Positions 8,129 to 60,366 of a stretch of 64,000 bases of DNA are shown piece by piece. The notes below the pieces were generated by a model, which saw only the letters and a program-made list of their open reading frames with translations, did not search any database and was not told the DNA's origin. The stretch lies in assembly GCA_963699755.1 (NCBI GenBank), contig CAVOVB010000002.1:64001-128000 (forward strand). Reading direction: 5' to 3'. Every line of letters begins with the position of its first letter. Position 1 is the first letter of the stretch. Made by a program: the position numbers and the translations under genes. The DNA comes from an uncultured delta proteobacterium. Its GTDB lineage: Bacteria > Myxococcota_A > Polyangia > Polyangiales > Houyiibacteriaceae.

Positions 8129-9406
8129 TCAGGCCGCCACATGGGAGTCCTTTCGTCCTAGTAGCGATGCGCGCGTCGTTTGCAGAAACCGATCGGCGAT
8201 ACGGTCTCGGTCGAATTGCTCAGCCACGCGGCCGAGGGCGTTCTTGCCTCTTTGGCGGGCCGTTTCCGGCTGAAGCGTGTTGAGCGCTTCAATCCACTCC
8301 GCTTCAGATTCCGCTCGAAAGTAGTCGCGTTGCGGGTCGAGCCCGATCCCTTCGACGCCTCGTTCCGTTCCGAGGCATGCGGTCGCGAAGAGGCTGCTCT
8401 CGATCGCCTTCACGCGGGTGCCGCTTCCGTAAAAAATAGGTACGAGGCTGATGATCGCAGAGTGGTAGTATTGAGCCACGGAGTCGACCTGGCCGAGAAA
8501 GCGGATTCGCGAATCGCGGAAGTACGGGGCAAGCCAGTTGCCGTCCCCGGAGCCCACGATGGTCAGCAAGTAAGGGCGAGTGACCTTGGGCCAGACCTTC
8601 TCCAAGAACCATCTCAGCCCATCGCGATTTGGCGGCCAGTCCAATCTCCCGATGAAGAGAAGCTGGCGCTCATCGGCAGGCGCGGGGCGCTGAGGCTTGG
8701 GTTCCATGCCAATGGGAAGGGGTTCGACGCGTGCCCGGGGAGCGATCTCCCGAAACCGACCGGCATCAGCGTCCGAAACCGTAAGGACCAATTGGGCAGC
8801 GTCACAGAGCGAAGCCTCGAACCGTTCGACGGCCTTTCCCTGCCACTCGAGGAGTCGCGCGGTCAAGCCGCGTTCTTGGGAAGCCGCTCGAAACCAGAGG
8901 TCTGCCTCGACATTGTGAGCACGATAGATCATCGGGACGCGCGGCCAGTCGGCGAGCTCCTGAAACCAGGCGGCGGCGTGCAAACCGTCAAACACGACCA
9001 CAGTCCCGGGCTCGGAGACCGCCCGAAAGAGCTTTCTGCAACCGTCCTTGGTCACGTACTGGGAAAGCGTCAGCGCTCGAGCGGGGTGGCGGAGCAGATT
9101 CTTCAGGTGAAGCACTCGCCCGGGCTTCGGTCTGCGAACGACGGTCGCCGACCGAATTCCCAGCGCACCGCGGGCTTCGAACTCCGAAACCTCTTCGCCC
9201 TGCGGCACGATGGCCAGCAGGTCGATGATTGCGCCTTTGAGACACAGGGCGCAAACTAGTTGTGTGGTCGCCTGCCGGGCACCGTCGCTTGCAGGCAATG
9301 GCCATTTTGGGGTGATCCAAAGAATTCGCTTCATCCCGATCGATGCGTCTTGACCGGTCGAGGACTCCGCAACGATTCCATCGGTAGTGAGGCCCAGCAT
9401 AGTCAT
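8129..9406 (-). CDS. Glycosyltransferase family 4
   Basis: RILWITPKWPLPASDGA, AHNVEA, LLFIGRLDWPPNRDGL, PIFYGSGTRVKAIE. ATG 9406 overlaps the upstream stop (ATGA); alternative start 9334. Confidence 0.87.
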   Translation of the reverse strand: MTMLGLTTDGIVAESSTGQDASIGMKRILWITPKWPLPASDGARQATTQLVCALCLKGAIIDLLAIVPQGEEVSEFEARGALGIRSATVVRRPKPGRVLHLKNLLRHPARALTLSQYVTKDGCRKLFRAVSEPGTVVVFDGLHAAAWFQELADWPRVPMIYRAHNVEADLWFRAASQERGLTARLLEWQGKAVERFEASLCDAAQLVLTVSDADAGRFREIAPRARVEPLPIGMEPKPQRPAPADERQLLFIGRLDWPPNRDGLRWFLEKVWPKVTRPYLLTIVGSGDGNWLAPYFRDSRIRFLGQVDSVAQYYHSAIISLVPIFYGSGTRVKAIESSLFATACLGTERGVEGIGLDPQRDYFRAESEAEWIEALNTLQPETARQRGKNALGRVAEQFDRDRIADRFLQTTRASLLGRKDSHVAA

Positions 9407-10203
9407 TTGGCTAGAATCATCACTAGATCCCCCCCGAACCTCTGGGTGAACGGCAGGGCACGAAAGACAACTTGGTCAATCTGCTCGATTCTGCTGGGGC
9501 GTTCGGGATGGCGATTGGGCAAGAACTTGCTGAAGCGAGACAAGAGGTTGAAACGTATCAGCTCGAATTTCGGGAAAGCCGACAAGACCATATTCAGCTG
9601 TTCGCGATTGAGCTTCTGTTCGTCTTCAGTTCGGTGGGCTTCGAGCGAGGGTTCGTTCGAAACCAACCAAGTCACGAGCCGCGAGTTTCGCAGGGCGTCG
9701 AATACTGGCACTTCGACGAACTCGCGGAACACGGCGATGCCACCGGGCTTGAGGACGCGGTACGCCTCGCGGATGGCATCCTCGACTTCAACGTGATGCA
9801 AGATGTCGAAGCCCGCGACGACGTCGAAGAAATCATCCGGGTATTCGAGGTCCTCTGCAGCCTGCAACGAGAAGTCGGTACTGTCGCCGAATCCATAGCG
9901 GTCCGCCTTGCGGCGACATTCGACGATGTTCTCTTCACAGACATCGAAGCCCCACACTCGGTAGCCGATCTTGGAGTGGCACATCGATGCATGGCCCAAG
10001 CCGCAGCCGAAATCGAGGAGCCGCTGGGAGGGACCCTGATATGCGTCTTGGATGATCTGATAGACTCGCCAGTAGGAATTCCAGGGGCGTCTCTCGTGGC
10101 CCATCACGGGATCGAATACGACCTCCTCGTCGTCGTGTGTCCGCGAGTATTCGCGATAGAACTGGCGTTCGCGCTCTTGCCTCGCTGTCAGATATTGCAT
10201 CAC
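9403..10203 (-). CDS. Class I SAM-dependent methyltransferase
   Basis: RLLDFGCGLG motif I, AEDLEYPDDFFDVV, ILHH, RVLKPGG. Confidence 0.9.
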   Translation of the reverse strand: MMQYLTARQERERQFYREYSRTHDDEEVVFDPVMGHERRPWNSYWRVYQIIQDAYQGPSQRLLDFGCGLGHASMCHSKIGYRVWGFDVCEENIVECRRKADRYGFGDSTDFSLQAAEDLEYPDDFFDVVAGFDILHHVEVEDAIREAYRVLKPGGIAVFREFVEVPVFDALRNSRLVTWLVSNEPSLEAHRTEDEQKLNREQLNMVLSAFPKFELIRFNLLSRFSKFLPNRHPERPSRIEQIDQVVFRALPFTQRFGGDLVMILAK

Positions 10204-10257
10204 GGCTTCCTCTGCGACTCCCGAATGGGGGCCTGAATCGATGTCAAACGCCCGACA

Positions 10258-10617
10258 CTAAGCCTCGACGCGAGCGCCTGGTGTCACGGAATGCTCAGCC
10301 ACCACGGTATCGGAGTCGTCCACGCAGGACACGAGCTTGGTGAAGCCCACCCGTTCGAGCAGCTCATAGACGATGGTAGGCACGTCGACGAGTCGCAGGT
10401 CCGTGCCGCGGATTCGTAGATGTGAGTAGAGTCGCACGAGCATGGCCAGTCCCGCCTGATCGATCCGGCGAACCCGCTCGAGGGACAACTCCACACACTC
10501 GACGCCCACGAGTTTCGAGAGCGGGAGTCGCTCGGCCAACCTCAAAGCGTCGTGGCCCAAGAGATCACCATCAAGCTCGATCCGCAGTCGAACAATGGAT
10601 TCACCTCGCGTCTTCAT
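10258..10617 (-). CDS. STAS domain protein (anti-sigma antagonist / MlaB-like)
   Basis: IELDGDL, VELSLERVRRIDQAGLAMLV, LRLVDVP..VYELLERVGF; ATGA overlap with the upstream stop. Confidence 0.85.
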   Translation of the reverse strand: MKTRGESIVRLRIELDGDLLGHDALRLAERLPLSKLVGVECVELSLERVRRIDQAGLAMLVRLYSHLRIRGTDLRLVDVPTIVYELLERVGFTKLVSCVDDSDTVVAEHSVTPGARVEA

Positions 10618-11987
10618 GACCGGCTGACATTAGCATGCATCGTGCCAAGTTCTTGGTGAAGATCAGACGGGGCGAGCTCCGCGTTCCAGATTTGTTCCAT
10701 GGCGGCGGACTGGGCGAACAAGATGAAGAGGAACCAGCTCCAACATTGCGATAGAAAGAACGCGGCGACGCAGAACCCGACCATCGATGGAAACATGGAG
10801 CGACGCACGGCTTGCCCCATTGGGTCGTCTTCCGGCACATCCGCCTTGCGGTGGTGATAGGCGAGACGGACGGTCAGAAAAACGAGCGCCATGAACGGGA
10901 TGAAACCGATGAGCCCGGTCTCCGCGGCGGCCTTGATGAACGAGTTGTGTGCATCGCGCGGCTCCCAGTTGACGGGATTTCGGGCGTAGCCGTGGTAGTT
11001 GTCCGGGAATTGGCCGAAGCCCACCCCGAAGAGCGGATTGTGAGCTGCCATACGAATTCCCGACGCCCACATGTCGAGCCGGCCCTGTGCGGATTCATCG
11101 AGCTCGCCAACCTTCAAGGCTCCGCTGGACCTCTCGTTCACGCCCGCGAGAAACAGCATGGCAACGACAAGTGCCACAAGCGCTGGCGCGAGCGCGAGCC
11201 GAAGGCTGACCCGGCCTCGGTCGTAGAAGGTGAACGCCAGCGCCGCCATGAGCCCGAGCGCTCCGCCGCGAGACACGGTTGCGAATATCCCGCCGACCAG
11301 AACTGCGAGCAGCAAGCCCCAGGAAAGACGCCTGATGCCGCGTGTCGACAGGGCAAGCTCGGCGAACAGCGGCACATAGATCAGCAGGACGAGCGCGAGA
11401 TCGTTTGGGTCTCCCAGCAACCCGGCGAGTCCGGCTCGATTGCCTTCGACCGTCGCTAGGCCCGAGGTCCTCAGGTGAATCGCCAAGAGCGCCAGCCCAA
11501 CCGTGCATAGGGCAAGGCTGAGGTGGAGCTTGACCGCCTGCCGCTTCGTAGTGACCAGATGGACCACGAGCACGTACATGATCAACATCTTGATGAAGAC
11601 ATCGCCGAAGTACGCCCAGCTCGCCGCCGGGTTGGTGCTCATCAGCGATGACAGCATCACTGCTCCGGCAAGTGCGAGCATCCACTTGCCGTGAGGTGCG
11701 GGAGACACCCGTATGTCGCCACGAAACAGCTTCGTGATCAGCCACGAAAGGATCGCAACCAGTCCGACGAGCTTGGCAGGCTGAATTGCGGCGAGCACTG
11801 GAAAGTGATCGGCGGGCCTGAGGACAAGGACCACGATGAACGCAAGTGTCGCATTGAGCGCGCTCGAGAGAGTCCAAACGATCGCGGCGACGCCGAGGAC
11901 GACCCCGAGGGCCGCCATTGGATGCACGGCGGCCGCGGAGGCGCCTACGGCAATTGCAACGCCGCCGAGGAAGGCAGCGCCACGCAC
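10614..11987 (-). CDS. O-antigen ligase / Wzy polymerase family membrane protein
   Basis: Many TM helices, GDPNDLAL, TVSRGG, SAQGRLDMW, NPLFGVGFGQF, AHNSFIKAAAETGLIG. Confidence 0.87.
   Translation of the reverse strand: MRGAAFLGGVAIAVGASAAAVHPMAALGVVLGVAAIVWTLSSALNATLAFIVVLVLRPADHFPVLAAIQPAKLVGLVAILSWLITKLFRGDIRVSPAPHGKWMLALAGAVMLSSLMSTNPAASWAYFGDVFIKMLIMYVLVVHLVTTKRQAVKLHLSLALCTVGLALLAIHLRTSGLATVEGNRAGLAGLLGDPNDLALVLLIYVPLFAELALSTRGIRRLSWGLLLAVLVGGIFATVSRGGALGLMAALAFTFYDRGRVSLRLALAPALVALVVAMLFLAGVNERSSGALKVGELDESAQGRLDMWASGIRMAAHNPLFGVGFGQFPDNYHGYARNPVNWEPRDAHNSFIKAAAETGLIGFIPFMALVFLTVRLAYHHRKADVPEDDPMGQAVRRSMFPSMVGFCVAAFFLSQCWSWFLFILFAQSAAMEQIWNAELAPSDLHQELGTMHANVSRS
10631..10648 (-). promoter_or_regulatory. 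sigma54 -24/-12 promoter upstream of the STAS gene, inside the 3' end of wzy
   Basis: Minus strand TTGGCACGATGCATGCTA: TGGCACG and GG-N10-GC spacing. Confidence 0.65.
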
Positions 11988-13265
11988 CTATGCTTCTCCT
12001 CGTGGCATTCTGCCGAGGGAGGGTGCGCCGAGTGCTTCGGTGAGCTCTTTCTCTCCGCGCAGCGAGTCATCGAACGCGGCAAAGAAGGCGACCGCAAGCA
12101 GCGCGAGTATCAATCCCGCAAGCAAAGCTCCCGGAAGCACGACCCAGAGCGAGGGATTGAGCGAGCGCGTGGGCATCACGGGCCTCTCGACAGTCCAGAC
12201 TTGATTCCCTTCGGCAAAGATCGCCAGTTCTTCGGTCAACAAACGCTGCCGGAGAAGTGCCTCTTGCGCCTTTGCCTCCTTCAGCTCGATCAGCAGCTCC
12301 TGATGTCGGGCCGCTGTGCTCGTCTCGGTCAGCGCCTGGCTTTCCGGATCGACCAGCTCTGAGCTGCCTGTTTCGTTCGCGACGTCGTCGCTGCTCTTGC
12401 GCTCCCGCCTGATCGCTCGCTGCAGCCATTGCACTCGCTGCCTCGCGGACACGAGCTTTGGGTGGTTCTCCCCGTAGAGCGGCCGAAGCTCGGCCACCTC
12501 GCGGCGAGCGTCCGCCAGATCCTTTCGGTATTGCCTCGATCCTACGGTCCCCTCCGGCTTGCGCTGCCGGAGCTTCGCCTCCGACTGCGCAACCGCTTGT
12601 TCGGCGGTTACGAGACGCACCTCGGCCTCCGCCAAGGCTCTGCGGAGACTGGGCTTCCCTCCACCTCTCCCTTCCTGGGCCTCAGGCAACTGGGCAACCT
12701 GTGGTTCGATTTCCTCCGTGTCGTCCTGAAGCTGCTCGAGCTGATCCTCGAAAAACTCTGCAGAGGCGCGAACCGTCTCTCTTTGCGGGCGGACGATCTG
12801 GTCGGTGAAAGCCTCGATCAGCTCATTGGTCGCCTGGTACGCCCCGATCGGGGTCGCTCCCTGCACCTTGATCAGGACCAGCTCTCCCCCAAGCGCAATG
12901 ACATCCAACCCTCGTTGGAAGTCCTCCACTGCCTGGTTCACCTCTTCGGGGCTGGCCATGTTTCCCAATCGCCCGAGTTTTCGAAGAACCCGCTCCGAGG
13001 TGTCGTGACTTTCGAAGATGCTTTCAACCAGAGGCATGCGTTGCTTCGCCGACCACTGTTCCAACATGTCCTTCAGAAAAGGGTTGACTGTCTGCTGGTC
13101 CTGAATGAGCAGCCGCGCCGTGCATTGATAGCGGTCGGGCATGATCTGCCACACTAGGCCGGCCGCCAAAACCGTGAGGAGGGGGACCAGCAACACCAAG
13201 TCCCAGCGCCGCAAGATCAAGTGAAACAATGCGTCGGGATTGAGCTCTCGCGGGGAGTTTTTCAT
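11988..13265 (-). CDS. Polysaccharide co-polymerase (Wzz / Wzc N-terminal / GumC family)
   Basis: Two TM helices flanking a coiled coil, PDRYQCTARLLI, YGENHPKL, VERPVMP, DDSLRGEKELTEALGAPSLGRMP. Confidence 0.85.
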   Translation of the reverse strand: MKNSPRELNPDALFHLILRRWDLVLLVPLLTVLAAGLVWQIMPDRYQCTARLLIQDQQTVNPFLKDMLEQWSAKQRMPLVESIFESHDTSERVLRKLGRLGNMASPEEVNQAVEDFQRGLDVIALGGELVLIKVQGATPIGAYQATNELIEAFTDQIVRPQRETVRASAEFFEDQLEQLQDDTEEIEPQVAQLPEAQEGRGGGKPSLRRALAEAEVRLVTAEQAVAQSEAKLRQRKPEGTVGSRQYRKDLADARREVAELRPLYGENHPKLVSARQRVQWLQRAIRRERKSSDDVANETGSSELVDPESQALTETSTAARHQELLIELKEAKAQEALLRQRLLTEELAIFAEGNQVWTVERPVMPTRSLNPSLWVVLPGALLAGLILALLAVAFFAAFDDSLRGEKELTEALGAPSLGRMPRGEA

Positions 13266-13816
13266 GACGACCTACGAAGCTGCCGAGTGATGACTCCGGG
13301 AGGCAATTGGGGCGGCCATGTCCTGAGGCCGGCTTTGATGCGGCGCAGAGTCTCGGCCGGAGACGGACATTCGAGCTCATTCCAGACCCCCCCAAGCATT
13401 GGCAAGCCAAGAACGCGGAGCTGGTCCGCGCAAGCCGCCACCTGTGCCCGGGTCGTGGTCATGCCCCGGGCTATGAGGAGCGCTCCATCGAAATTGGCGC
13501 GGACTGAGGGAGTCAGTGCGGCAGCCCCTTCCCCTTCCAGCAACGCCAGACCGTCGACCCAGACATAGCCGTGCGCGGGCTCTGCCGTCGGCTCAAGCTC
13601 TGCTTTCGACAGCGGCGCCGTGAAGCTCTGCACCATAGAGGTCTCGTTCGTCACCGCGCTCGCGTGCCGTTGAATGCAGCGTGCAAAATGGGTCTTTCCA
13701 TCCCCAGAGTGGGCGGACACCAGGAGAATGCGGTGTGCGTTCGCCGACTGTGCAGCGCCAAACACGCGCGCCACGAGGCTGTGCTCCTCGCGCAGCAATT
13801 TAGCAGAGCTGGTCAC
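13262..13816 (-). CDS. CpsD/CapB-like P-loop protein, degenerate BY-kinase
   Basis: ILLVSAHSGDGKT Walker A, DGALLIAR.MTTR, LGGVWN. Start placed at GTG 13816 (AGGGAAG RBS, downstream of a sigma54 promoter) rather than 13984. Confidence 0.68.
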   Translation of the reverse strand: MTSSAKLLREEHSLVARVFGAAQSANAHRILLVSAHSGDGKTHFARCIQRHASAVTNETSMVQSFTAPLSKAELEPTAEPAHGYVWVDGLALLEGEGAAALTPSVRANFDGALLIARGMTTTRAQVAACADQLRVLGLPMLGGVWNELECPSPAETLRRIKAGLRTWPPQLPPGVITRQLRRSS

Positions 13817-13847
13817 ATCGACTTCCCTAGGCAAGACCAACGTATAA

Positions 13848-13864
13848 CGCAAGATTGGGGCCGA
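13848..13864 (-). promoter_or_regulatory. sigma54 promoter for the cpsD-wzz-wzy operon
   Basis: Minus strand TCGGCCCCAATCTTGCG: GG-N10-GC with TTGC. Confidence 0.6.
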
Positions 13865-13917
13865 GTGTCGATCGGCCCCGCAAAGGGGGACAGTCGCTCC
13901 GCATGGACACATGGTCC

Positions 13918-13963
13918 GTTTCATTCCGAAACAAGGGTGGGCGTCTCCGTGCCGGTTCGGAAC
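13918..13963. promoter_or_regulatory. Pair of palindromic operator/UAS sites, 31 bp apart
   Basis: GTTTC-ATTCC-GAAAC (13918) and GTGCC-GGTTC-GGAAC (13949), between divergent sigma54 promoters. Confidence 0.62.
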
Positions 13964-13983
13964 AGGCGCCTCAACGAGCCCCA

Positions 13984-13999
13984 TGGCTCGATCCTTGCT
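13984..13999 (+). promoter_or_regulatory. sigma54 promoter for the GT4-GT4 operon
   Basis: TGGCTCGATCCTTGCT, near consensus TGGCACG-N4-TTGCW. Confidence 0.75.
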
Positions 14000-14039
14000 T
14001 CATTCGCTTCAGACCCCCAGCCTATCGCCGGAGTGTTGC

Positions 14040-15188
14040 TTGAAAGAGTACCCGACGCCGCGCCGTCGTCTACGCGTGGCCCAACTCATGCAGTATTTCG
14101 CCGTTGGCGGCCTCGAGCGAATGGTCGAACGCCTCAGCGTCGCCTCGAATGCTCGGGGCATCGAGAGTCTGGTCATCGCGTACCTTGGGGATGGGCCGAT
14201 TCGAACAGCGCTCGAGCAGCAAGGTATTCGGACGCTCCTGCTCGACAATGGACCAGGTTTTGATCCGAAGCTCGTATGGCGCCTTCGTTCTGTACTCCTT
14301 CGGGAGCAGATCGATGTGCTGCACACGCATCATTTGGGCCCCTTCGTATACGGCGCGCCTGCGGCTGTTCTGGCCGGGTGCCGGCAGGTCCACACCGAGC
14401 ACTCCCACGAGCTCTACGACACGACCCGGAGGCAATTTCTGGGTGCCATGATGTCACCGCTCGCCGAAGTGGTCGCCGTGACACCGGAAATCTCCGAGTA
14501 CCGAAAGCGCTTTCCGGGCCGATGCCTTGTGATCCCCAACGGAGTGCCCATACCTCAGGATTCGCTCGCGATGCGCGAGGCAGGGCGCGCTCTGATAGGC
14601 GCGAATCAAGACAACTTCGTGGTGGGCTGCGCCGCACGACTTTCTGCCGAGAAGAACCATGCGGGCCTCCTCGAAGCATTCGCACAGCTCGTTCGGGACG
14701 AGCCCCGTTCACTTCTCGCCTGCGCCGGCGATGGGCCTCTCGGCGACACACTGCGCGCCCAGGCGGAAGCCGCTGGTCTGAGTCCACGCGTTCGATGGTT
14801 GGGCACGGTGCAAGACATGGCGCCGTTCTACGCGGCGCTCGACGCGTGCGTCCTCAACAGCGATCGAGAGGGTTTGCCCCTCAGCCTGCTCGAAGCGATG
14901 GCGTTTGGGATTCCAGTAGTCGCAACCGACGTGGGGGGCGTCGGAGAGCTCCTCGCCGGGGAGGCCGGATTGCTCGTTCCCCCGCGTGCGCCCGAGACCT
15001 TGGCTGGCGCCCTGGTGTCCCTGGTCGAGCAACCCGAGTTCGCGAAGAAGCTCGGCGAACATGGCAAGGCCCGTATTCATGAGAGCTACGGCATCGACAC
15101 CATGGTCGACCGTTACGTCGCGCTCTATCGTGACGCCGCAAAAAGACCGCTGCTCTGGTCTAACATCGGTTCTGCACCGTGCGCATAA
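14040..15188 (+). CDS. Glycosyltransferase family 4
   Basis: VGGLERMV, DVLHTHH, ARLSAEKNH, GDGPL, REGLPLSLLEAMAFGIPVVATDVGG. Start moved to TTG 14040 (GGAG RBS at 14030). Confidence 0.9.
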   Translation: MKEYPTPRRRLRVAQLMQYFAVGGLERMVERLSVASNARGIESLVIAYLGDGPIRTALEQQGIRTLLLDNGPGFDPKLVWRLRSVLLREQIDVLHTHHLGPFVYGAPAAVLAGCRQVHTEHSHELYDTTRRQFLGAMMSPLAEVVAVTPEISEYRKRFPGRCLVIPNGVPIPQDSLAMREAGRALIGANQDNFVVGCAARLSAEKNHAGLLEAFAQLVRDEPRSLLACAGDGPLGDTLRAQAEAAGLSPRVRWLGTVQDMAPFYAALDACVLNSDREGLPLSLLEAMAFGIPVVATDVGGVGELLAGEAGLLVPPRAPETLAGALVSLVEQPEFAKKLGEHGKARIHESYGIDTMVDRYVALYRDAAKRPLLWSNIGSAPCA

Positions 15189-16267
15189 GCCACATCATCG
15201 CGCCCGGACTCATGGCTGGCGCCGAGAATGTCGTTTTGCAGGGCTGCGCGGCTCTGGTCGCTCGCGGGCACGCGCTGTCTGTGCTGGTGATGGTGGACGA
15301 TCGCTGTCCCTCGTATGGGGAGCGCTTCATCGAGGCGGCCCAGGAAAGGAACGTCCCGGTCCGCGCGCTACGTGTCCGAGGCCGCCTCGATTTAGTCACG
15401 ATCGTGAAGCTTCGCGGCGCGCTCGAGGCGCACGGCACCGAGGTCATGCATGCGCATGGGTACAAGGCGCTCGTCTATGGCTTGCTGGCAAAGACCAGAC
15501 ACATGGCCCTCGTGGTCACCCACCATGGTGAAACGGGACATGATCGATTGGCGCGATTCTATGAGAGTCTCGCGCGAACGCTGTATCGAATGGTCGACCG
15601 CGTGTTCTCCGTTTCGAACGCTACGACCGAGTCACTCGTTGCGGCAGGCGTGCCGCGGGCAAAGCTCACAACGGTGCCCAACCCCGTTTCGCTTTCTGCG
15701 CCGACCTCCGGCACCGAGCGGAAGCGGTCGGAAGGCGCGATGCTTTTCGTGGGCCGGCTCAGCGAAGAAAAGGGTCTCGACGTACTCCTGCGCGCACTTG
15801 CGTCGCCTCGCGCGCCCAAGCAGCTCACGCTCGATGTTGCGGGCGACGGGCCGTGCGCCGGTCAGTGGAAGGCGCTGTCGACTAGCCTGGGGCTCGATGG
15901 CCGAGTTCGCTGGCTGGGCGTGCGTGTTGATATCCCCGAGTTGCTCGCCGAAACCCAAGTTCTGGTCCTTCCCTCGCGCCGCGAGGGGCTCCCCCTGGCG
16001 GTGTTGGAGGCTGCCTCGTGCGAGGTTCCGGTGCTTGCAAGTCGAGTTGGCGGCGTGCCCGAGGCTGTGTGGGAAGGCGAAACCGCTCTACTCGTTACGC
16101 CAGGCGACGTGGACGCCTGGTCGAGAGCGCTCGAAACCTTGCCGATGCAGACCGAGAAGCTCCGTCATGGCGCAAGGCGTCGCGGTGCCGAAGTCCGCGC
16201 CCGCCACGCACCCGAGCGTTGGGCTGAGCTAACGACGCAACATTACGGTGAGGTTGCAAGGCGATGA
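15179..16267 (+). CDS. Glycosyltransferase family 4
   Basis: AGAENVV, MHAHGYK, FVGRLSEEKGLDVL, REGLPLAVLEA, SRVGGVPE. Confidence 0.9.
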   Translation: MRISHIIAPGLMAGAENVVLQGCAALVARGHALSVLVMVDDRCPSYGERFIEAAQERNVPVRALRVRGRLDLVTIVKLRGALEAHGTEVMHAHGYKALVYGLLAKTRHMALVVTHHGETGHDRLARFYESLARTLYRMVDRVFSVSNATTESLVAAGVPRAKLTTVPNPVSLSAPTSGTERKRSEGAMLFVGRLSEEKGLDVLLRALASPRAPKQLTLDVAGDGPCAGQWKALSTSLGLDGRVRWLGVRVDIPELLAETQVLVLPSRREGLPLAVLEAASCEVPVLASRVGGVPEAVWEGETALLVTPGDVDAWSRALETLPMQTEKLRHGARRRGAEVRARHAPERWAELTTQHYGEVARR

Positions 16268-16319
16268 TCGGCGTAAGACTTCGGTCGAGAGTCGCTCGTC
16301 GCGTCACGCTCACCGACGT

Positions 16320-16365
16320 GTTTCACTTCGGAAGTCGGCGGACGAGAAGTGTTCTAGAAAGGCGC
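16320..16365. promoter_or_regulatory. Pair of palindromic operator/UAS sites, 31 bp apart
   Basis: GTTTC-ACTTC-GGAAG (16320) and GTTCT-AGAAA-GGCGC (16351), upstream of the promoter at 16427. Confidence 0.5.
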
Positions 16366-16426
16366 ATCGAATGGGGCGCCGAAGACACGCGTGCTTGCAG
16401 CGCCGAGGATCTCGGCATCGAGACGT

Positions 16427-16442
16427 TGGCGCGCAGGTTGCA
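16427..16442 (+). promoter_or_regulatory. sigma54 promoter for the GT2-priming transferase gene
   Basis: TGGCGCGCAGGTTGCA: GG-N10-GC with TTGCA. Confidence 0.75.
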
Positions 16443-16490
16443 TGCGCGGCGAGCAGCGCGATTGAATCGAACGCGAGATTAGGTATCGGC

Positions 16491-18308
16491 ATGCCGACGT
16501 GGATGGATATTCTCCTTATTGCTTTCTTATTCTCAGCGCTCCTCGCGCCCTACATCTTCTACCCACTTCTGGTCCGGTACGTGATTCCGCCGAAGACACG
16601 AAGTGACGCTCGGACCGCCCAGGCCTTGCCCCCGGTGAGTGTGCTGATCCCGGCACACAATGAGGCCGCTCGACTAGGCCAGAAGCTACAAAACACGCTG
16701 GCGCTCTCCTACCCGCGCAACCGCATGGAGGTGCTGGTCGCATCAGACGGCTCCGGTGACCAGACCGCCGAGGTCGCGCGCGCGTACGAAAGCTCGGGAG
16801 TGCGCGTGTTGGAGCTACGTGAGCGAGGCGGCAAGCTCGCGGCACTGAAGCATTTGCTCGAGCAGGCGCGAGGCGAGATCGTTTTGTTCACCGACGTCGG
16901 CGCCGACTTGCCACAGAACACGGTCTCCGAGCTCGTCGACGAGCTTGTAGACCCCGACGTGGTCGTGGCCATGCCCCGCTACGTGTCCGTCGGACAGGAT
17001 GGGACTGAAAGCGCCGCCACCGACGGGGTATATTGGAGTCGCGAGACGCGCTTGAAGGAGCTCGAATCGAAGCGCGACATGCTGCTTGGTGCGCACGGCG
17101 CATGCTACATCATGCGCCGGGAATCGATTGTCGAGGTCCCATCCGACACAATTCACGACGATCTGGTTTGGCCCTTGCTTGCCCACGCAGCTGGTGGACG
17201 CATCGTCTATCGTTCCGACCTCGTGGTCTCAGACCTGGCTCCCACTCGCCTTTCCACCATTTTCGAGCGAACGGCGCGCATGGCGCATGGCAATCTTCAG
17301 GTGCTCTGGCGCTACCGTCGGCTGCTGAGCCCGCGCCACGCGCGAATCGCGGTGAGCCTCATCGGCCACAAACTTCTGAAGTCTCTGGGTCCGGTTTGGA
17401 TTTTGGCGCTTGCGTTCTGGGTCAATTTCCGCGCCTTGACCGAATCGGTGTTGGTCCCACTTGCGATCGCCGGTGACCTCTTGCTTCTCGTGCTCGTCGC
17501 ATCTGCGCTCTGGCGCGGCGCAGGCCTTCCACTGCCCCGAAGCCTCGGACTGGGTGTGCATGCGCTGGTGGCACAATCAGGCTGCGCGCTGGGGATCCTT
17601 CGTTTTCCCTTCGGAGCCAACGGAACGCGTTGGCGTCGTCCACCCGAAAACGACGTCCTGGAGTTGCATCGCCCAGCCCTTCCGCCCCCCTCGGTACGAA
17701 TCGCGAAGCGCACCCTGGACGTCGTCGGAAGCTCCGTCGGTCTCTTGCTCGCACTGCCCTTGATTCCGCTCATCGCCCTGGCGATTCGTGTGAGCTCGCC
17801 AGGCCCCATCCTGTACCGACAGGAGCGGGTCGCGAAAGACTATATGGGACGTCCGTACGGCTTTGCGATCTGGAAGTTCCGAACGATGCGAGTCGACGCG
17901 GAGGCCGACGGCGAGGCGGTCTGGGCACAGGAGAGCGATCCGCGCGTGACCGCGGTGGGCGCGTTCCTTCGAAAGCTCCGGCTCGACGAGATACCTCAGC
18001 TCGCCCAGGTGCTCCGGGGCGATATGACCTTGATCGGCCCTCGCCCGGAGCGGCCCTCGATTACCGACACGCTGTCGCTTCAGCTGCCCGGTTATGATGA
18101 TCGACATCCGCCGTGCAAGCCTGGAATCACCGGCTGGGCCCAGGTCCACACCGGCTACGACACCTCGGTCGAGAGCGTGCGCGAAAAATTACTCTACGAC
18201 TTCACGTACAACGCCCACCTCTACGGGCTCCGCAGCTACCTAGCGATGGAGCTGCGCGTCATCCTGCTCACGGTTGCGGTGATCATCAACCGAAGGGGCG
18301 CGCACTGA
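16491..18308 (+). CDS. Fusion of GT2 glycosyltransferase and polyprenol-phosphate phosphoglycosyl (priming) transferase
   Basis: N half: VSVLIPAHNE, ASDGSGD, GGKLAAL, FTD, HDD. C half: KRTLD, PILYRQERV, KFRTM, RLDEIPQL, GDMTLIGPRPE, KPGITGWAQV. Start ATG 16491 is consistent with the promoter. Confidence 0.88.
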   Translation: MPTWMDILLIAFLFSALLAPYIFYPLLVRYVIPPKTRSDARTAQALPPVSVLIPAHNEAARLGQKLQNTLALSYPRNRMEVLVASDGSGDQTAEVARAYESSGVRVLELRERGGKLAALKHLLEQARGEIVLFTDVGADLPQNTVSELVDELVDPDVVVAMPRYVSVGQDGTESAATDGVYWSRETRLKELESKRDMLLGAHGACYIMRRESIVEVPSDTIHDDLVWPLLAHAAGGRIVYRSDLVVSDLAPTRLSTIFERTARMAHGNLQVLWRYRRLLSPRHARIAVSLIGHKLLKSLGPVWILALAFWVNFRALTESVLVPLAIAGDLLLLVLVASALWRGAGLPLPRSLGLGVHALVAQSGCALGILRFPFGANGTRWRRPPENDVLELHRPALPPPSVRIAKRTLDVVGSSVGLLLALPLIPLIALAIRVSSPGPILYRQERVAKDYMGRPYGFAIWKFRTMRVDAEADGEAVWAQESDPRVTAVGAFLRKLRLDEIPQLAQVLRGDMTLIGPRPERPSITDTLSLQLPGYDDRHPPCKPGITGWAQVHTGYDTSVESVREKLLYDFTYNAHLYGLRSYLAMELRVILLTVAVIINRRGAH

Positions 18309-18312
18309 CCGT

Positions 18313-19791
18313 TCAGCGAAGCCCGTACTTCTCGAGCTTTCGATAGAGCGTCGTCCGACCGATCCCTAGCGCTTTGGCCGCTTCGGTCAGGCGGCCATTC
18401 TTGTCACGGAGCGCCCGTTTCACGGCCCAGCGCTCTACGGCTTCCAAGGACAGTGGTAGCTCCTCGAGGGATCTTGGCGTGGGTCGTGCCCGTAACTCTT
18501 CCTCCGCGCGCATACTTGGGGCTTCCAGGCCGTTGACGACCGTGTCCCCGTCACCTGGGGCCGAAATGTTCGACTCGGGCAATCTCGATGACCGCGCGTA
18601 GTGATCCCGAACCCGAACCGGCAGGTCTTGAAGGTCGATTTCGTTACCGGTGGCGAGCACGGCAGCGCACTGCAAGATGTTCTCGAGCTCCCGGACGTTT
18701 CCCGGGAAAGGGTAGCGCTCCAGGGCACACATCGCTCGCGCGCTCAAGCGCAAAGGCTGCGCGCCAAGGCTGTTGCAAAGGTCTCCGAGGAGCCTCGGCA
18801 CCAGCAGGGAGAGGTCACCATCGCGCATCCGCAGTGCCGGGAGCTCGATCTCGAAGACGACGATCCGGAAGTAGAGATCTTCGCGAAAACGGTTGGTCTC
18901 AACCATGTCGCGCAGGTTGCGATGTGTCGCGGTGATCAGACGAAAGTCGCTCTCGACCGTGCGAATCCCGCCCAGACGGTCGAAACTACGCTCCTGCAGC
19001 ACCCGCAAGAGTTTGGCTTGCACGGCAAGGGACAGCTCGGCGACCTCGTCGAGAAAAAGCGTGCCACCGTCCGCGCGCTCGAAGCAGCCGGCCCTCGCCT
19101 TATGTGCGCCGGTAAAGGAGCCCCGCTCGTGTCCAAAGAGCTCCGAGTCCTGCAACGACTCGGGGATCGCAGCGCAATTGATCGCAACGAAGGGTCCGCC
19201 CGCGCGTCGACTGTTCTCGTGGATAGCGCGGGCGATGAGCTCCTTGCCGGTTCCGCTATCTCCGCGAATCAAGACGCTGATGTCGCGGCCGGCGATGCGA
19301 TCAACTTGACGAAACACCTCACGCATCCGTGGAGACCGGCCAATCACGCCCGCGTAAGAAACCTCCTCAGCGGGGTCATCGATTCGCGCCGAAGCGCGTT
19401 CGTCTGACGATCGCAGGGCGCGATGGATGGAGGACAACAATCTGCCGCGGTCGACCGGCTTGGTCAGGTAGTCGGAGGCCCCAGCTCGCATGGCGTCTAC
19501 GATCGACTCTGCCGAGGCCTCGGCGGTGAGCACCAGCACTGGAACGCTCGGGTGTTGTCGGAGGGACGCATCGAGCGCCTCCCAAGCGCCGATTCCTGGT
19601 AGGCTGAGATCCAGGCAGACTAAATCGGGCAAGGTGGTGTCGAGGCTGTCCAGGAAGCTCTCCGCATCCCAGCATTGGGCTGTGCGCAGGCCCGCGTCGT
19701 TCAGCCATCCTGTGACGAGCGTGCGCTGATCAGCATCGTGCTCGGCGAAGACGACCAATGGGCCACCTCGAAATGACTCCATGGTGGGCAC
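18313..19791 (-). CDS. sigma54-dependent response regulator (NtrC family; REC-AAA+-Fis HTH)
   Basis: LVCLDLSLP, YLTKP, GDSGTGKE, GSFTGA, LFLDEV, FREDLYFR, PGNVRELEN, AAKALGIGRTTLYRKL. Confidence 0.95.
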   Translation of the reverse strand: MPTMESFRGGPLVVFAEHDADQRTLVTGWLNDAGLRTAQCWDAESFLDSLDTTLPDLVCLDLSLPGIGAWEALDASLRQHPSVPVLVLTAEASAESIVDAMRAGASDYLTKPVDRGRLLSSIHRALRSSDERASARIDDPAEEVSYAGVIGRSPRMREVFRQVDRIAGRDISVLIRGDSGTGKELIARAIHENSRRAGGPFVAINCAAIPESLQDSELFGHERGSFTGAHKARAGCFERADGGTLFLDEVAELSLAVQAKLLRVLQERSFDRLGGIRTVESDFRLITATHRNLRDMVETNRFREDLYFRIVVFEIELPALRMRDGDLSLLVPRLLGDLCNSLGAQPLRLSARAMCALERYPFPGNVRELENILQCAAVLATGNEIDLQDLPVRVRDHYARSSRLPESNISAPGDGDTVVNGLEAPSMRAEEELRARPTPRSLEELPLSLEAVERWAVKRALRDKNGRLTEAAKALGIGRTTLYRKLEKYGLR

Positions 19792-19856
19792 TCCTCGTGG
19801 TTCTGCCTCTTCGAACGTGACGAAAAAGCGGGGGGACGAACACTGTCCGATCAGAC

Positions 19857-19902
19857 GTCCCGAATTGCAACGGCGAACGGCGGAGAAGTTCCGTTCCGGG
19901 AC
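19857..19902. promoter_or_regulatory. Pair of palindromic operator sites 31 bp apart upstream of the activator gene (possible autoregulation)
   Basis: GTCCC-GAATT-GCAAC (19857) and GTTCC-GTTCC-GGGAC (19888). Confidence 0.55.
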
Positions 19903-19961
19903 TCTTCTGCAGAAATGGGCAGGCCCCTTGCACCTTCAGGGCGAATTAATGCGCTATGTTT

Positions 19962-21779
19962 TCACCAGACGGCGCCGCTGGCGTGGAGAGCTCGCGGATA
20001 GCTCGCGATCACCTCGCTCGCGCGAGCGGCGTGATAGGCGATCAATTGAAGCGGCACGGCGAGCACGAGCGGGGACCAAATGGGGTCGATTCGGCTCGCT
20101 TCGATGCACTGCAGGCCATCTCGCTTTGCGACGACTGCGGTGCGCGAGTCACCCAGCAAAATAGGTTCCCCCCCTCGCGCGATGACCTCATGCACGTCGG
20201 ACAAGGTATGATCGAAGGTCTCATCGTGCGGCGCAACGACGACCACCGGCGTGCCTGGCTCGGTCAACGCGCTCGGACGGTGTTTGAGCTCCCCGCCCGC
20301 AAGACCTTCAGCTGGCACATCGGCAAGCGTCTCGACGGTGAGCGCACCTGCTTGGGCGAGCGGATAGTTCTTGCCCCGCCCCAAGTATAGGCCACGGTTC
20401 TTCTCGGCTATCCGACGACCGACCGCGACACACTGATCTTCCTGCTCGAGCGCGCTCTTGATGGCCTGCGGCACGCCGAAAATCGAAGCGGTGATTACGT
20501 CGCTTTTCGCCACCCCATCGCGTCGCTGTCGAATGACGATTGATGCCGCTGCAAGTGCGCAGAGCGTAGCCGTGAAGGCGTTGGTGGATGGGATTCCGAC
20601 CTCATGGCCTGATCTGCAGTCGAGCACCGCGTCGGCCTCTCGGACCAGTGCGCTCGACGTCACGTTGACCAGGGCGACCGTCGGAACGTTTCGCTGTTGC
20701 AAGTACCTGAGCGCTTCGAGTGTGTCCGCGTCTTCTTCCACCTGGGAAACCAGAAGCGCCATGGTCCCCTCCATAAAGACTGCATCGCGGGTCTTGAGCT
20801 CCGAGCTCAGCTCGAGCTCGACCGGGATGCCGGCGATCTGTTCCAGCCAAGCCCGGCCAACATGCGCCGCATGGTGCGAAGCGCCGTTCCCGACCGCGAG
20901 GATTCGGTCCGCTCGCCATAGCGGCCCGCACCAGCAATCCAGCTCGCCGGAATTCATATCGCGCTCGAGCTCGAGCAAGGTGCGGCCTAGGATTACGGGT
21001 AGGTCTTCGATCTCTTCGCGGACGAAGTTGGTGACGACCGTCCCGCTCTGCCGCGTCTCGGCTGAGCTCACGATTCGAGTCCAGCGAGGGACGATCTGCT
21101 CGAGATGCGAGCCGAAGATGCGGACCTGACCCGGGCAGAGCTCGGCAATCTGTCCGTCGTCGAGGGACACGAATTCGCTCGCGACCCGGCCCAGAACGAT
21201 GGGGTCGGAGGCCAGCCAGGAGGCGCCACCCGCCCGCGCCGCGGCGAGTGGATTGCCGCGCCGCGCCGCGTATAGGCAATCGTCGTACTGCGTGCAGATC
21301 ATGCCAAGCGCAAAGGACCCTTGCAGCTTGGGAAGCACAGTCCGCAATGCCGTAATTGGGTGAGCGCGATTGGCGAGCTCTCTGTCCAGCAGCCACACGA
21401 TTACTTCGCTGTCGGTGTCGCTTCGGAACTGGACGCCCTCATGCTCCAGCGCGGCCCGAAGCTCTGCATGGTTTTCGACGACCCCGTTGTGAACGATGGC
21501 GACTCTCGAGCTGGCATGTGGATGGGCGTTGTGTCGAGAAGAGTCGCCATGTGTAGCCGAGCGCAAGTGGCCGAGAACGGTCGTCGAACTGATCGGCTCA
21601 TCTGAAAGCAGCGTCTCCAAGAACGACAGAGGTCCCGTTGCCCTTCGCCTCTGAATCTGGCGGTCGGTCAAGACCCCCAAACCGGCCGAATCACAGCCCC
21701 AGTGCTCCAAATCGGCCAAGCCGTGCATCACACTGGGCACCACGTTGTCATGTGCTGTCGCACAGAAAATCCCACCCAT
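19962..21779 (-). CDS. glmS: GlmS-like protein (GATase + two SIS domains), catalytically degenerate
   Basis: Full-length GlmS architecture (DSAG, GHLRSATHG, NAHPH, VHNG, SDTDSEV, ELKH, PLQLIAY) but starts MGGIF instead of MCGI and lacks the C-terminal NLAKSVTVE. Confidence 0.85.
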   Translation of the reverse strand: MGGIFCATAHDNVVPSVMHGLADLEHWGCDSAGLGVLTDRQIQRRRATGPLSFLETLLSDEPISSTTVLGHLRSATHGDSSRHNAHPHASSRVAIVHNGVVENHAELRAALEHEGVQFRSDTDSEVIVWLLDRELANRAHPITALRTVLPKLQGSFALGMICTQYDDCLYAARRGNPLAAARAGGASWLASDPIVLGRVASEFVSLDDGQIAELCPGQVRIFGSHLEQIVPRWTRIVSSAETRQSGTVVTNFVREEIEDLPVILGRTLLELERDMNSGELDCWCGPLWRADRILAVGNGASHHAAHVGRAWLEQIAGIPVELELSSELKTRDAVFMEGTMALLVSQVEEDADTLEALRYLQQRNVPTVALVNVTSSALVREADAVLDCRSGHEVGIPSTNAFTATLCALAAASIVIRQRRDGVAKSDVITASIFGVPQAIKSALEQEDQCVAVGRRIAEKNRGLYLGRGKNYPLAQAGALTVETLADVPAEGLAGGELKHRPSALTEPGTPVVVVAPHDETFDHTLSDVHEVIARGGEPILLGDSRTAVVAKRDGLQCIEASRIDPIWSPLVLAVPLQLIAYHAARASEVIASYPRALHASGAVW

Positions 21780-21833
21780 TTGGATCCTTGAAGTTGGAGA
21801 GTCCGAACCAATCCCGCTTGAACTCTCGAGACC

Positions 21834-21850
21834 TGCGAAAACCGGGCCAG
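21834..21850 (-). promoter_or_regulatory. sigma54 promoter upstream of the glmS-like gene
   Basis: Minus strand CTGGCCCGGTTTTCGCA: TGGC and GG-N10-GC. Confidence 0.58.
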
Positions 21851-21870
21851 TCGTCCTGGGGACCCTTTGC

Positions 21871-21957
21871 GTTTCACAAGCGAACGCCGTGATGCGCTAG
21901 TGTACCGAATAGGGGCGGGGCCCATGCCGTCCGGTAGAAGCCGTTTCAATTCGGACG
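21871..21957. promoter_or_regulatory. Palindromic operator/UAS sites upstream of the glmS-like gene
   Basis: GTTTC-ACAAG-CGAAC (21871), GTACC-GAATA-GGGGC (21902, +31 bp), GTTTC-AATTC-GGACG (21943). Confidence 0.5.
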
Positions 21958-25554: not shown

Positions 25555-25969
25555 TTCATCGACCTCGTACCGAGCCTAGCATCGTGAACATTGTGGCGCA
25601 GAACGAGCCGCCGCATGCCCGGAGCAGGCTCTTCGTTCGAATCGGCACTGGCTTCTAAGCCGAGCTCGGCCTTGATGGGAGCTCGGAGCGCTGGGCCGGA
25701 GAATCAGATCAAGCAGCTGTGGTAGCGAACGTCCCTCGAGATCCGCCGCGAAATTCCATAGTTTGGACTCTCAGCGCCTCGAGTCTGGACTCCGACGAGA
25801 TGGGCCCTCCGCCGCGGCGGCTCGTTCGTTCGGCAAATCGTGCTGCTCGGCCCTCTTGCGACGACTTTCTCGATTTGAGACAGGCCGTTCGGGTCTACTC
25901 TCCGACAGCGAAGGACATCGGGACCCTTGCCGACCATCCGAGAAACTTCTAGATCCAACAAGGACCCCC

Positions 25970-27871
25970 ATGAGCCATCTCATCCCTCTCCCGGAGCACA
26001 CGGTCGAAATCGTTAGCGACGCCGGCGAAGGTGCGCAAAAAGCAGCCATTGCCTTCGCCCAGCTCTGCGCCAAAGCGGGCAACGGCCTTTGGACCGTGGA
26101 GATCATCCCCTCGGAGATCCGTCCCCCGCCTCATACGATCGGAAGCGCGAGCGGCAATCGCATTCGCCTGGCCGAGCGTAGCAAGGTCACCAATGCCGGT
26201 AACCGAGCGAACGTGGTCCTTGCCTTCAACGAAATGGCCTTGCTCTCGCGGCTCGAAGCAGGAAGTCTCGCCGACGATGTTCTCGTGCTGATCGACGATC
26301 ACTGGGCGACTCATGATGACGAGCGGTACCGGATCTCCTACCGCGAGGTGCTCGACAAAGTCCGTTCGCGTGGCGCGACCATCCGCGAGGTACCGCTGGA
26401 AAGGGAAACCATGCGCCACGCCGAAGATGCACAACAGGGCAAGAACATGTTCGCGGTGGGCCTCCTGTGCGCCCTCTACAACAAGGACATGGACGTGCTC
26501 GACGATGTGATTCGCGGCATCTTCAAGGGCAAAGCCCGCGAGGTGATCGAGCTAGCCGTAAGGCTCGCAGACGCCGGCTACCAATACGGAGTCAAACACT
26601 TCGAACAACGCTTCGAAATCCAGGCTGTGCCGACAGACATCCCGAAAGTAGCCATGAACGGGAACACCGCGCTCGCGCTGGGCGCCGTCTCGGCCGGATT
26701 TGAGATCTGCTCCATGTATCCGATCACCCCAGCGACCTCTGCTTCACATGAATTGTCGGGGATTTTCGAAGATTTCGGCGGCTTCGTCCATCAGGCCGAG
26801 GACGAGATCGCCGCGATTGGGGTGGCGCTTGGAGCATCCTACGCCGGAAAGACCGCGCTGACCATCACCTCAGGGCCGGGCATGGCCTTGAAGACCGAGT
26901 TTCAGGGCTTGGCCGTGATGACCGAGACACCGCTCGTCATCGTCGATGTTCAGCGGGGCGGACCCAGCACCGGCTTACCCACGAAGATCGAGCAGTCGGA
27001 TCTGCTTCATGCGCTCTACGGCGCGCCAGGGGACGCACCCAAAGTGGTGATCGCGCCGAGCACGATCGAAGAGTGTTATTATATTCTTTCGCTCGCCCGG
27101 AAGATCGCCGAGGAATTCCGCATGCTCGTCATCGTCCTTTCAGATGCGAATCTCGCGACCGGTCAGCAGCTTTTCGATCGTCCCGATGTCTCCCAAACAC
27201 CGCGACGGCCCCCGCTCGACCTGAGCCCGGTGCCGCTCGGAACCCTTCCGTACGATTGGGATCCCACGACCGGCCTTTCGCAGCGCCTGATCCCTGGGCA
27301 ACCAGGGGGAATGGGCGTGACGACCTCGCTCAACCACGACCGGAACGGAAAGGCCTGCTATGACGCCGAGCGCAACCAACGCGGTCACAGCATGCGGAGC
27401 CGAAAGCTAGCGGCACTACAACAAAGCCTGAACGCGCCGAGCGTGCATGGGCCGCCCGAAGGCGACCTCCTCCTCGTGGGTTGGGGCAGCACGCGGGGAG
27501 CGATCGAGGAAGCCGTCGACATAGCGCGCGGCGAAGGCCTCGCGGTTTCCTCCGTCCACCTTCAGTTCCTGAGTCCCCTGCCCCCCGGGCTCCGCGAGAT
27601 CTTCGCAGGTTTTCGCCAGATCATCACCGTCGAGCTGAACTACAGCGACGATTGGGAGGACCCTTTGATTACAAAGGAAAACCGTCGATACGGCCAGTTG
27701 GCATGGATCCTCCGCGCCGCCACCCTGCTCGACATCGACTGCTACGCCAAGGTCCCCGGTCGGCCCTACATGCCGGTGGAAATCATGGACGAAATCAAAC
27801 GTATCCTGGGCAATCAATCGGGAATCGAAAGCCCGGCTGAGACCTTCCCAGCCATTGCGGGAGCCAATTAA
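25970..27871 (+). CDS. korA: 2-oxoacid:ferredoxin oxidoreductase alpha subunit (gamma-alpha fusion)
   Basis: MYPITPAT, QAEDEIAA, TSGPG, VQRGGPSTGLPTK, GWGST; start ATG 25970 with AGGA RBS. Confidence 0.92.
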   Translation: MSHLIPLPEHTVEIVSDAGEGAQKAAIAFAQLCAKAGNGLWTVEIIPSEIRPPPHTIGSASGNRIRLAERSKVTNAGNRANVVLAFNEMALLSRLEAGSLADDVLVLIDDHWATHDDERYRISYREVLDKVRSRGATIREVPLERETMRHAEDAQQGKNMFAVGLLCALYNKDMDVLDDVIRGIFKGKAREVIELAVRLADAGYQYGVKHFEQRFEIQAVPTDIPKVAMNGNTALALGAVSAGFEICSMYPITPATSASHELSGIFEDFGGFVHQAEDEIAAIGVALGASYAGKTALTITSGPGMALKTEFQGLAVMTETPLVIVDVQRGGPSTGLPTKIEQSDLLHALYGAPGDAPKVVIAPSTIEECYYILSLARKIAEEFRMLVIVLSDANLATGQQLFDRPDVSQTPRRPPLDLSPVPLGTLPYDWDPTTGLSQRLIPGQPGGMGVTTSLNHDRNGKACYDAERNQRGHSMRSRKLAALQQSLNAPSVHGPPEGDLLLVGWGSTRGAIEEAVDIARGEGLAVSSVHLQFLSPLPPGLREIFAGFRQIITVELNYSDDWEDPLITKENRRYGQLAWILRAATLLDIDCYAKVPGRPYMPVEIMDEIKRILGNQSGIESPAETFPAIAGAN

Positions 27872-27873
27872 CG

Positions 27874-28830: not shown

Positions 28831-28835
28831 TCTCC

Positions 28836-30329: not shown

Positions 30330-30425
30330 GGAAGCCAAGCCTTTCGAACGCGTCTTGCCCCGCGCTGCCCATCTGCTTAGATGGGGCAAACGCACCCTAC
30401 GCGTTCATACCTGCCGAGGTCACCC

Positions 30426-31769: not shown

Positions 31770-31772
31770 AGC

Positions 31773-34159: not shown

Positions 34160-34162
34160 TCC

Positions 34163-34609: not shown

Positions 34610-34617
34610 GGTGACGC

Positions 34618-52505: not shown

Positions 52506-52631
52506 GCCTTTGGCGGTGCAACACTCATGCCAGATGCAGATGTCGCCTATTCCTGTTCCGCTGAAACAGTCTCGCGAAAGTCTTGCGCGCGTGCGCTCGA
52601 TCGCGACAAGCTTGCGCCAAGCTGCGCGCGG

Positions 52632-60345: not shown

Positions 60346-60366
60346 TGCGATACTCGACTCTCTCGC

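Follow-up and report, generated by a model that had tools for sequence, protein, structure and literature searches.

A paired dyad as the predicted upstream activating sequence of an NtrC-type activator in a Polyangiales polysaccharide cluster

The 64,000-nucleotide stretch analysed here (the window; contig CAVOVB010000002.1, positions 64,001 to 128,000, from an uncultured bacterium of the Polyangiales) contains a polysaccharide gene cluster whose intergenic regions carry a short dyad in pairs next to sigma54-type promoters, with the gene of an NtrC-type activator in their midst. On the plus strand, family searches identified an operon of two family-4 glycosyltransferases (GT4-GT4; 14040..16267, made up of 14040-15188 and 15179-16267) and a family-2 glycosyltransferase fused to a WbaP/WcaJ-type priming sugar transferase (GT2-WbaP; 16491..18308). 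The minus strand carries the activator gene (18313..19782), a second copy of glmS (19962..21779, recognized by a TIGR01135 match and residue comparison) and a leftward run (8129..13816, family search) of a P-loop-like open reading frame (ORF) and Wzz-like, Wzy_C membrane, STAS, methyltransferase and GT4 genes, which its gene spacing suggests is one operon. A PglK/MsbA-like ATP-binding cassette exporter also belongs to the cluster. The P-loop-like ORF (13262-13816, minus strand) precedes the Wzz-like gene, is conserved and contains the motif GDGKT; its start codon is uncertain, it has no match in Pfam or NCBIfam, and it is likely a divergent Wze/BY-kinase. Although the listed contamination of this genome is 9%, the locus is syntenic in eight relatives, and homologues with 69-75% identity to the activator come from sources labeled Polyangiales, Myxococcota or Deltaproteobacteria. 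The genomes compared (G-numbers, with L-numbers for loci) comprise 55 of the genus plus more distant ones.

The activator has a receiver domain, an AAA+ domain with Walker motifs and the sequence GSFTGA, and a helix-turn-helix (HTH) of the Fis type with the recognition helix GIGRTTLYRK. Its gene had been given as 18313-19791 in the original prediction, which should be corrected to 18313-19782 with the ATG at 19782 as start. GSFTGA is listed as a working variant of GAFTGA (PMC4641369; papers are cited by accession, from excerpts of their text), and rpoN is present in the genome.

Predicted sigma54 -24/-12 boxes precede four transcription units. The box of the GT4-GT4 operon (13984..13999, plus strand, predicted +1 at ~14010) and that of the GT2-WbaP gene (16427..16442, plus strand, predicted +1 at ~16453) are each conserved in 7/7 genomes, and the box of the glmS copy (21834..21849, minus strand, predicted +1 at ~21823) is conserved in 8/8. 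The box of the leftward operon (13848..13863, minus strand) is conserved with turnover: in G023, G070 and G042 its place is taken by another box 18 bp downstream, while G001 has both; the tandem box positions correspond to 13830-13863 of the window. Another good sigma54-like box lies at 10647(-) before the STAS gene and one more at 52532(-), neither with dyads. Three dyad pairs had been said to adjoin GG-N10-GC promoters. They do, but the boxes served number four because the 13918/13949 pair sits between the divergent boxes 13863(-) and 13984(+).

Aligning each of the four intergenic regions with its counterparts in 6-7 relatives gave the consensus of the sites as a 15-bp dyad, GTTYCR-NWN-YGRAAC. 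All ten predicted sites and four pairs lie where they had been placed, with pair starts 31 bp apart in this genome; the pattern by which they had been described, GTTYC-N5-GGAAC, taken literally matches none of the ten. Scores come from a weight matrix built on 46 sites, all from relatives and none from this genome; the column of the weak 13896 site was dropped, as were two sites that had been misaligned. Between the divergent boxes lie a strong site at 13918..13932 (17.1 bits; -85 and -88 to the two promoters) and its partner at 13949..13963 (14.7 bits; -54 to the plus-strand box, -119 to the minus-strand box), together with a weak site at 13896..13910 (7.9 bits; -107 and -66, respectively) that keeps a 22-bp spacing to the next site in 7/7 genomes. 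Upstream of GT2-WbaP are a site at 16320..16334 (14.3 bits; -126) and a weak one with a conserved left arm at 16351..16365 (4.0 bits; -95), whose score is equalled or exceeded by 12,647 genome positions. The glmS copy has three sites, at 21871..21885 (11.5 bits; -55 here and -64 to -66 in 6/7 relatives), 21902..21916 (8.4 bits; -86) and 21943..21957 (13.1 bits; -127), the last lying 41 bp from the previous one and clear in 6/7 relatives. The sites at 13896 and 21943 had both been called weaker extra copies, which is true of the former, whereas the latter outscores both members of its neighboring pair. Each of the sigma54 boxes is thus preceded by two or three tandem dyad sites at -54 to -127. 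The fourth pair lies upstream of the activator gene itself, as predicted, and consists of a site at 19857..19871 (16.0 bits), which covers the predicted -35 of the activator promoter, and an upstream partner at 19888..19902 (14.2 bits).

Conservation and background comparisons confirm the sites. Site arms are 0.72-0.85 identical to those of relatives compared with 0.43-0.49 for the remaining intergenic DNA, and the observed pair score was reached in 0, 0, 0 and 1 of 1000 dinucleotide shuffles of the four intergenic regions. When 2,389 upstream regions of the genome (delimited by our own crude gene caller) were scanned for a 30-32 bp pair of at least 18.3 bits, exactly the four predicted regions were returned, the next best reaching 12.2 bits; with the orthologues of each region left out of training, the four ranked 1, 6, 2 and 4 of 2,389. 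Among the 13 genome-wide pairs above 15 bits the cluster's pairs rank 1, 2, 5 and 7. Its four boxes rank 1, 2, 3 and 7 when 1,642 box-like sites are ordered by their upstream dyads, a ranking that is not independent because relatives' boxes from the same cluster went into training the box matrix. Single sites are degenerate, with 30 genome positions scoring at least 15.5 bits.

No further promoter with paired sites and a box of its own emerged from the genome scans, in agreement with a local regulon. Three candidates were rejected: C1:1833885 has a strong single site, but its box is intragenic and the partner scores only 1.1 bits; the box of C6:41121 lies within a coding stretch, its site being partly kept in G023 and G001 (the alignment was informative for two of four relatives, the other two being in the wrong orientation); and C1:1291181 is a 20-bp pair of 9.9 and 8.9 bits that adjoins another activator. 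Genes for polysaccharide export (OPX, PF02563) gave three hits, all elsewhere and none in the top 25 box-site combinations. The IHF consensus had no match in 30 aligned regions.

The original prediction took a constant spacing of exactly 31 bp as the main evidence for the pairs. This cannot be upheld because the genome shows no excess of 31-bp pairs (4, with 0-6 at other spacings) and the spacing varies in relatives: 26 orthologous pairs are 30 (8), 31 (11) or 32 (7) bp apart, and none of the four relatives holding all four regions has 31 bp throughout. Extra sites stand 22 and 40-41 bp from the pairs, and at distant homologue loci spacings are mostly 20-22 bp. Helical phase relative to the sigma54 box is a steadier feature. 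All 35 scored sites, from 15 promoters, fall within half a turn (period 10.5), and for the best site of 12 promoters the phase concentration R is 0.68, a value reached by 0.0017 of random draws. At glmS, two genomes place the array at -55 and six place it one helical turn away, at -64 to -66. Displacements by 7-8 bp (in G008) and by 18 bp (through box turnover) were also seen, and these remain inside the half turn.

At the activator's own promoter the arrangement differs. No conserved sigma54 box accompanies the 19857/19888 pair among the aligned relatives; a plus-strand box at 19917 was considered and set aside, as it is not conserved in 7 relatives. The proximal site contains an invariant AATTGCAAC, and on the activator strand it reads TTGCAA. 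We predict a sigma70-type promoter (19842..19870, minus strand) composed of TTGCAA (19870-19865), a 17-bp spacer and GACAGT (19847-19842). TTGCAA followed after 17 bp by a hexamer with invariant A2 and T6 is found in 8/8 genomes (7 by script, G001 by eye), and genome-wide the pattern peaks at the 17-bp spacer (277 occurrences versus 123-236 at other spacers). Since the proximal site covers the conserved -35 hexamer, autorepression is suggested. The predicted autoregulation is therefore retained in altered form, as a feedback that is likely negative and sigma70-type rather than one acting via sigma54. Negative autoregulation is known for NtrC (PMC10746234).

Taken together, these data lead us to propose that GTTYCR-NWN-YGRAAC is the upstream activating sequence of the 18313-19782 activator, which would switch on the four sigma54 promoters of the cluster and damp its own sigma70-type promoter. 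From the sequence evidence we put the probability of this reading at roughly 0.8. In such a system activator dimers would occupy sites in twos or threes, set 2, 3 or 4 helical turns apart, and then oligomerize, and the GSFTGA loop would open sigma54 polymerase at the boxes, with one array serving two divergent promoters. At the activator gene, a dimer over the -35 hexamer would block the housekeeping polymerase and so provide negative feedback. The sites at -54 and -55 may limit output at high activator level, as the low-affinity sites of glnAp2 do.

The assignment of the dyads to the neighboring activator, which was part of the original prediction, is favored by three lines of evidence from which binding can be inferred: sites are lost with the activator, its recognition helix is unique, and motif and activator co-occur at distant loci. 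Regarding the first, the activator was found in 10/55 genomes of the genus and the GT2-WbaP gene in 13/55. A strict pair pattern matched in 6/55 genomes, giving 7 matches that all lie in this cluster and all in activator-bearing genomes (reversed control, 0); it missed four activator-bearing genomes and matched in 0 of the 45 genomes without an activator match. In G060 (91% complete) and G020 (99%) the cluster genes and both divergent boxes are kept. The activator was not found in these two genomes, where the best HTH hits are 47-49%, and the sites are gone, with a box-to-box interval of 79 instead of 121 bp and best scores of 6.4 and 2.9 bits. Regarding the second, GIGRTTLYRK occurs in only one of the 26 activator-like HMM hits in the genome and is present in 37/38 close homologues. 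The dN of the HTH is 0.03-0.13 at dS 0.7-1.5. In a tree, twenty homologues group in a single clade (100/100) that excludes all 19 paralogues included; six weaker hits were left out of the tree.

Regarding the third, 5/6 distant homologue loci within the order (47-51% identity) have a site of at least 16 bits within 5.5 kb, compared with 0/80 control loci (817 kb) taken from a related-locus search without close relatives. Several of the distant loci encode a different polysaccharide system, with a hybrid kinase, TPR, BcsB-like, ATP-grasp and GT2 genes together with glmS or a phosphomutase. The motif thus appears to follow the activator into a different gene cluster. A recurrent Polyangiales locus of hybrid kinase, TPR, Ter-type ATP-grasp and GT2 genes is seen at L090, L107 and L109 (G038, G202, G165), with additional BcsB-like and REC-PIG-L genes in G038 and glmS in G165; our literature search gave no description of it. 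The ATP-grasp promoters of four distant genomes (L109:10615, L105:9147, L107:9129 and L119:9226) have a GG-N10-GA box, in which the -12 element reads TGAA, a conserved non-canonical sigma54 variant.

Several observations weigh against the proposed reading. In the distant comparison the 16-bit mark was chosen after an earlier scan and the best control reached 15.2 bits; G338, which belongs to the order, has no site of at least 16 bits, and neither does L001, one of the 80 controls, have a site despite belonging to the activator clade. A prediction set in advance for loci outside the order mostly failed, 16-bit sites being found at 1/4 strict-helix and 1/2 near-helix loci (2/6), so the link weakens with distance. 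The phase test gives p 0.026 when reduced to six promoter types, and its promoters were hand-picked and are related. G060 and G020 are sisters and hence represent a single loss event, and as both keep their sigma54 boxes another activator would be needed there. In G046 a 32-bp pair and the glmS box are present but no activator was found; this genome is 81% complete and has N gaps. In G014 the activator gene has no upstream sites. The sigma70 call at the activator gene matches 7/12 E. coli consensus bases, and a generic promoter scan detects nothing there. Finally, the sites at -54/-55 are closer than the enhancer distance usually reported, 100-250 bp (PMC6615313).

Some of these points would also be expected if binding of the activator to the dyads served mainly for modulation or repression, in the manner of FleQ, while another enhancer-binding protein did the activating. 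We consider this unlikely. It would account for the persistence of the divergent boxes in G060 and G020, which have no activator and where the -54 site has turned into a different dyad, STATCG-N3-CGATAG (L098:14596-14690 and L099:14541-14635), as well as for the -54/-55 sites near the polymerase and for the decaying receiver described below. G014 can be read in the same way: its activator, 138 kb away, has GAFPGA and FLDAV (a Walker B E-to-A change) and is probably ATPase-dead, the same T-to-P change inactivating NifA (PMC4641369), and yet the HTH and a 30-bp pair (19.9 and 13.8 bits) are kept while the sigma54 boxes fail the scan. This genome may have switched to sigma54-independent control, or may be in decay; in addition to the relocated activator (L089:7505-8899) and kept sites (L100:10092-10136), a sigma70-like pattern was observed before GT2-WbaP. 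Against a mainly modulatory role, strong purifying selection acts on the AAA+ domain of the eight cluster-linked copies (dN 0.07-0.14 at dS 0.8-2.3), GSFTGA is intact, the alignments reveal no further conserved motif, and just one of the four FleQ residues for c-di-GMP is kept. A second regulon for the STATCG-N3-CGATAG dyad was rejected, since its other copies are in coding DNA or without a sigma54 box.

It is also quite unlikely that the dyads are bound by a regulator from another family encoded elsewhere, with the neighboring activator a bystander. The commonness of degenerate single sites, the sites of G046 with no activator detected and a motif class common to several activator groups would fit such a regulator; the confinement of paired sites to this cluster, the absence of the strict pattern from genomes without an activator match, a helix that no paralogue shares (19/19 tested paralogues fall outside the clade) and a motif that accompanies the activator into a different gene cluster would not. 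A structural role for the dyads, as ParB/parS-like sites or otherwise, is hardly credible, and so is a chance origin: the half site resembles that of parS and single copies such as 16351 are weak, but the dyad spacer is 3 bp and that of parS 2 bp, exact parS-type 14-mers number 0 in the genome, and chance is at odds with the conservation, the shuffles and the fixed phase to sigma54 boxes.

If the activator does act at these promoters, what it responds to is a question of interest, given that its receiver is decaying and no kinase was found for it. Receiver chemistry involves five residues, an acidic pair, an Asp, a Thr/Ser and a Lys. This signature is not intact in the activator, in which position 15, acidic in 75/75 distant homologues, is a His while D58, T86 and K108 are kept. 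All five residues are intact in 15/38 close versus 73/75 distant homologues (six fragments and one gapped row being left out of these counts), and D58 is kept in 36/38 close homologues. No cognate histidine kinase lies within the window; the kinase encoded next to glmS in G046 turned up in 1/55 genomes, and other kinases of the genome could serve the activator. The decaying receiver and the lack of a detected cognate kinase suggest that phosphorylation of the activator is probably weak or dispensable. As to c-di-GMP, one of the FleQ residues R144, R185, E330 and R334 is kept; since EpsI and VpsR bind this ligand while lacking part of that set (PMC4877007), the activator may bind it too.

The GlmS copy offers another conceivable input. 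It is full length, scores 457 with TIGR01135 (cut-off 418), evolves under purifying selection (dN/dS 0.17-0.37) and has the best-kept promoter. This copy lacks the N-terminal catalytic Cys and the C-terminal AKSVTVE tail, features absent from 7/8 syntenic copies, and an intact housekeeping glmS is also present in the genome. The copy is missing together with the activator in G060 and G020, which adjacency alone explains. The receiver and GlmS decays are not tightly coupled, since G017 and G021 have a near-intact receiver and a degenerate GlmS. A sensor role for the GlmS copy is speculation. A wider scenario, which we regard as a long shot, is that the activator, taking its enhancer word along, left a synthase-type polysaccharide locus under kinase control for a Wzy/flippase-type cluster, lost the kinase and receiver chemistry, and is now tuned by a catalytically dead GlmS copy whose expression the activator itself induces and which senses amino-sugar precursors, with G014 a further step to sigma54-independent control. 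If true, this would make a pseudo-enzyme GlmS the regulatory partner of a sigma54 activator.

Under the activator-enhancer reading, an uncharacterized Polyangiales activator family gains a binding word together with five promoters and a regulon. The relatives would also constitute a natural series for the evolution of sigma54 enhancers, in which spacing moves by whole turns, regulator and word shift between unrelated polysaccharide loci, sites disappear with the activator and boxes erode as the ATPase decays. Elsewhere in the window, 25763-38291 holds a gene pair for 2-oxoacid:ferredoxin oxidoreductase and then a V/A-type ATPase operon, and 54927-63999 (minus strand) has ketosynthase, ApeP, LolA-like, MMPL, halogenase-like and aromatic lyase genes, which we take to resemble an aryl-polyene-type cluster.

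A literature search, whose scope did not extend to RegPrecise, subscription journals or figure logos, returned no account of the motif or regulon; the individual features can be compared with several known systems. PrsR, a response regulator of the sigma54 type, is encoded close to exopolysaccharide genes; its upstream motif of 17 nt lies 32-92 nt ahead of the box and in some cases is repeated (PMC1569441). Our activator likewise lies near polysaccharide genes, and several cluster genes have their best matches in PEP-CTERM/XrtA NCBIfam families, all below cut-off. It differs in its TIGR02915 score (368.6, below 502.6) and in that the PrsR motif ends in TTTACA, and neither PrsK nor PrsT occurs in the window. 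EpsI/Nla24 of M. xanthus, compared by description only (PMC4877007), is also an NtrC-like regulator within a myxobacterial polysaccharide locus, but models of EpsD/E/H/U/Z score far below cut-off on the cluster genes. A binding motif for EpsI did not turn up in the excerpts. NmpR of M. xanthus shares tandem dyads with a preferred spacing before sigma54 boxes, while its word is GCGCA-N5-TGCGC (PMC11841059). FleQ and VpsR resemble the activator as enhancer-binding proteins with an atypical receiver and control of polysaccharide genes (PMC10723142); of the FleQ residues, R144, E330 and R334 align with A, R and D here and only R185 is kept.

By its word, the dyad belongs to the TGT-N11-ACA class, which has been predicted for Fis-HTH activators such as Desulfovibrio DVU2394 and clostridial AorR, MopR and BldR (PMC4641369, PMC6615313). 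The likeness, by motif alone, consists of a 17-bp geometry and a 3-bp A/T center in common; individual listed sites of AorR and MopR nearly fit our consensus, and DVU2394 sites are paired 32-34 bp apart in the same sources. Those activators belong to other phyla and have other targets, and the flanking base is here C or T. By its architecture, the system is like NtrC at E. coli glnAp2, where enhancers 32 bp apart (-140 and -108) are accompanied by weaker sites at -89, -66 and -45, spaced 21-23 bp (PMC5159524). Both combine paired enhancers plus weaker sites, a receiver-AAA+-HTH activator and negative autoregulation, the last being a prediction here. Unlike with NtrC, the dyad, the recognition helix and the targets, polysaccharide genes, are different here, an array is shared by divergent promoters, the TIGR01818 score is 415 (below 558.6), and there is no NtrB-like partner in the cluster. 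The binding word is one that we have not found described, and the system proposed to use it is a conventional bacterial sigma54 enhancer with a textbook mechanism.

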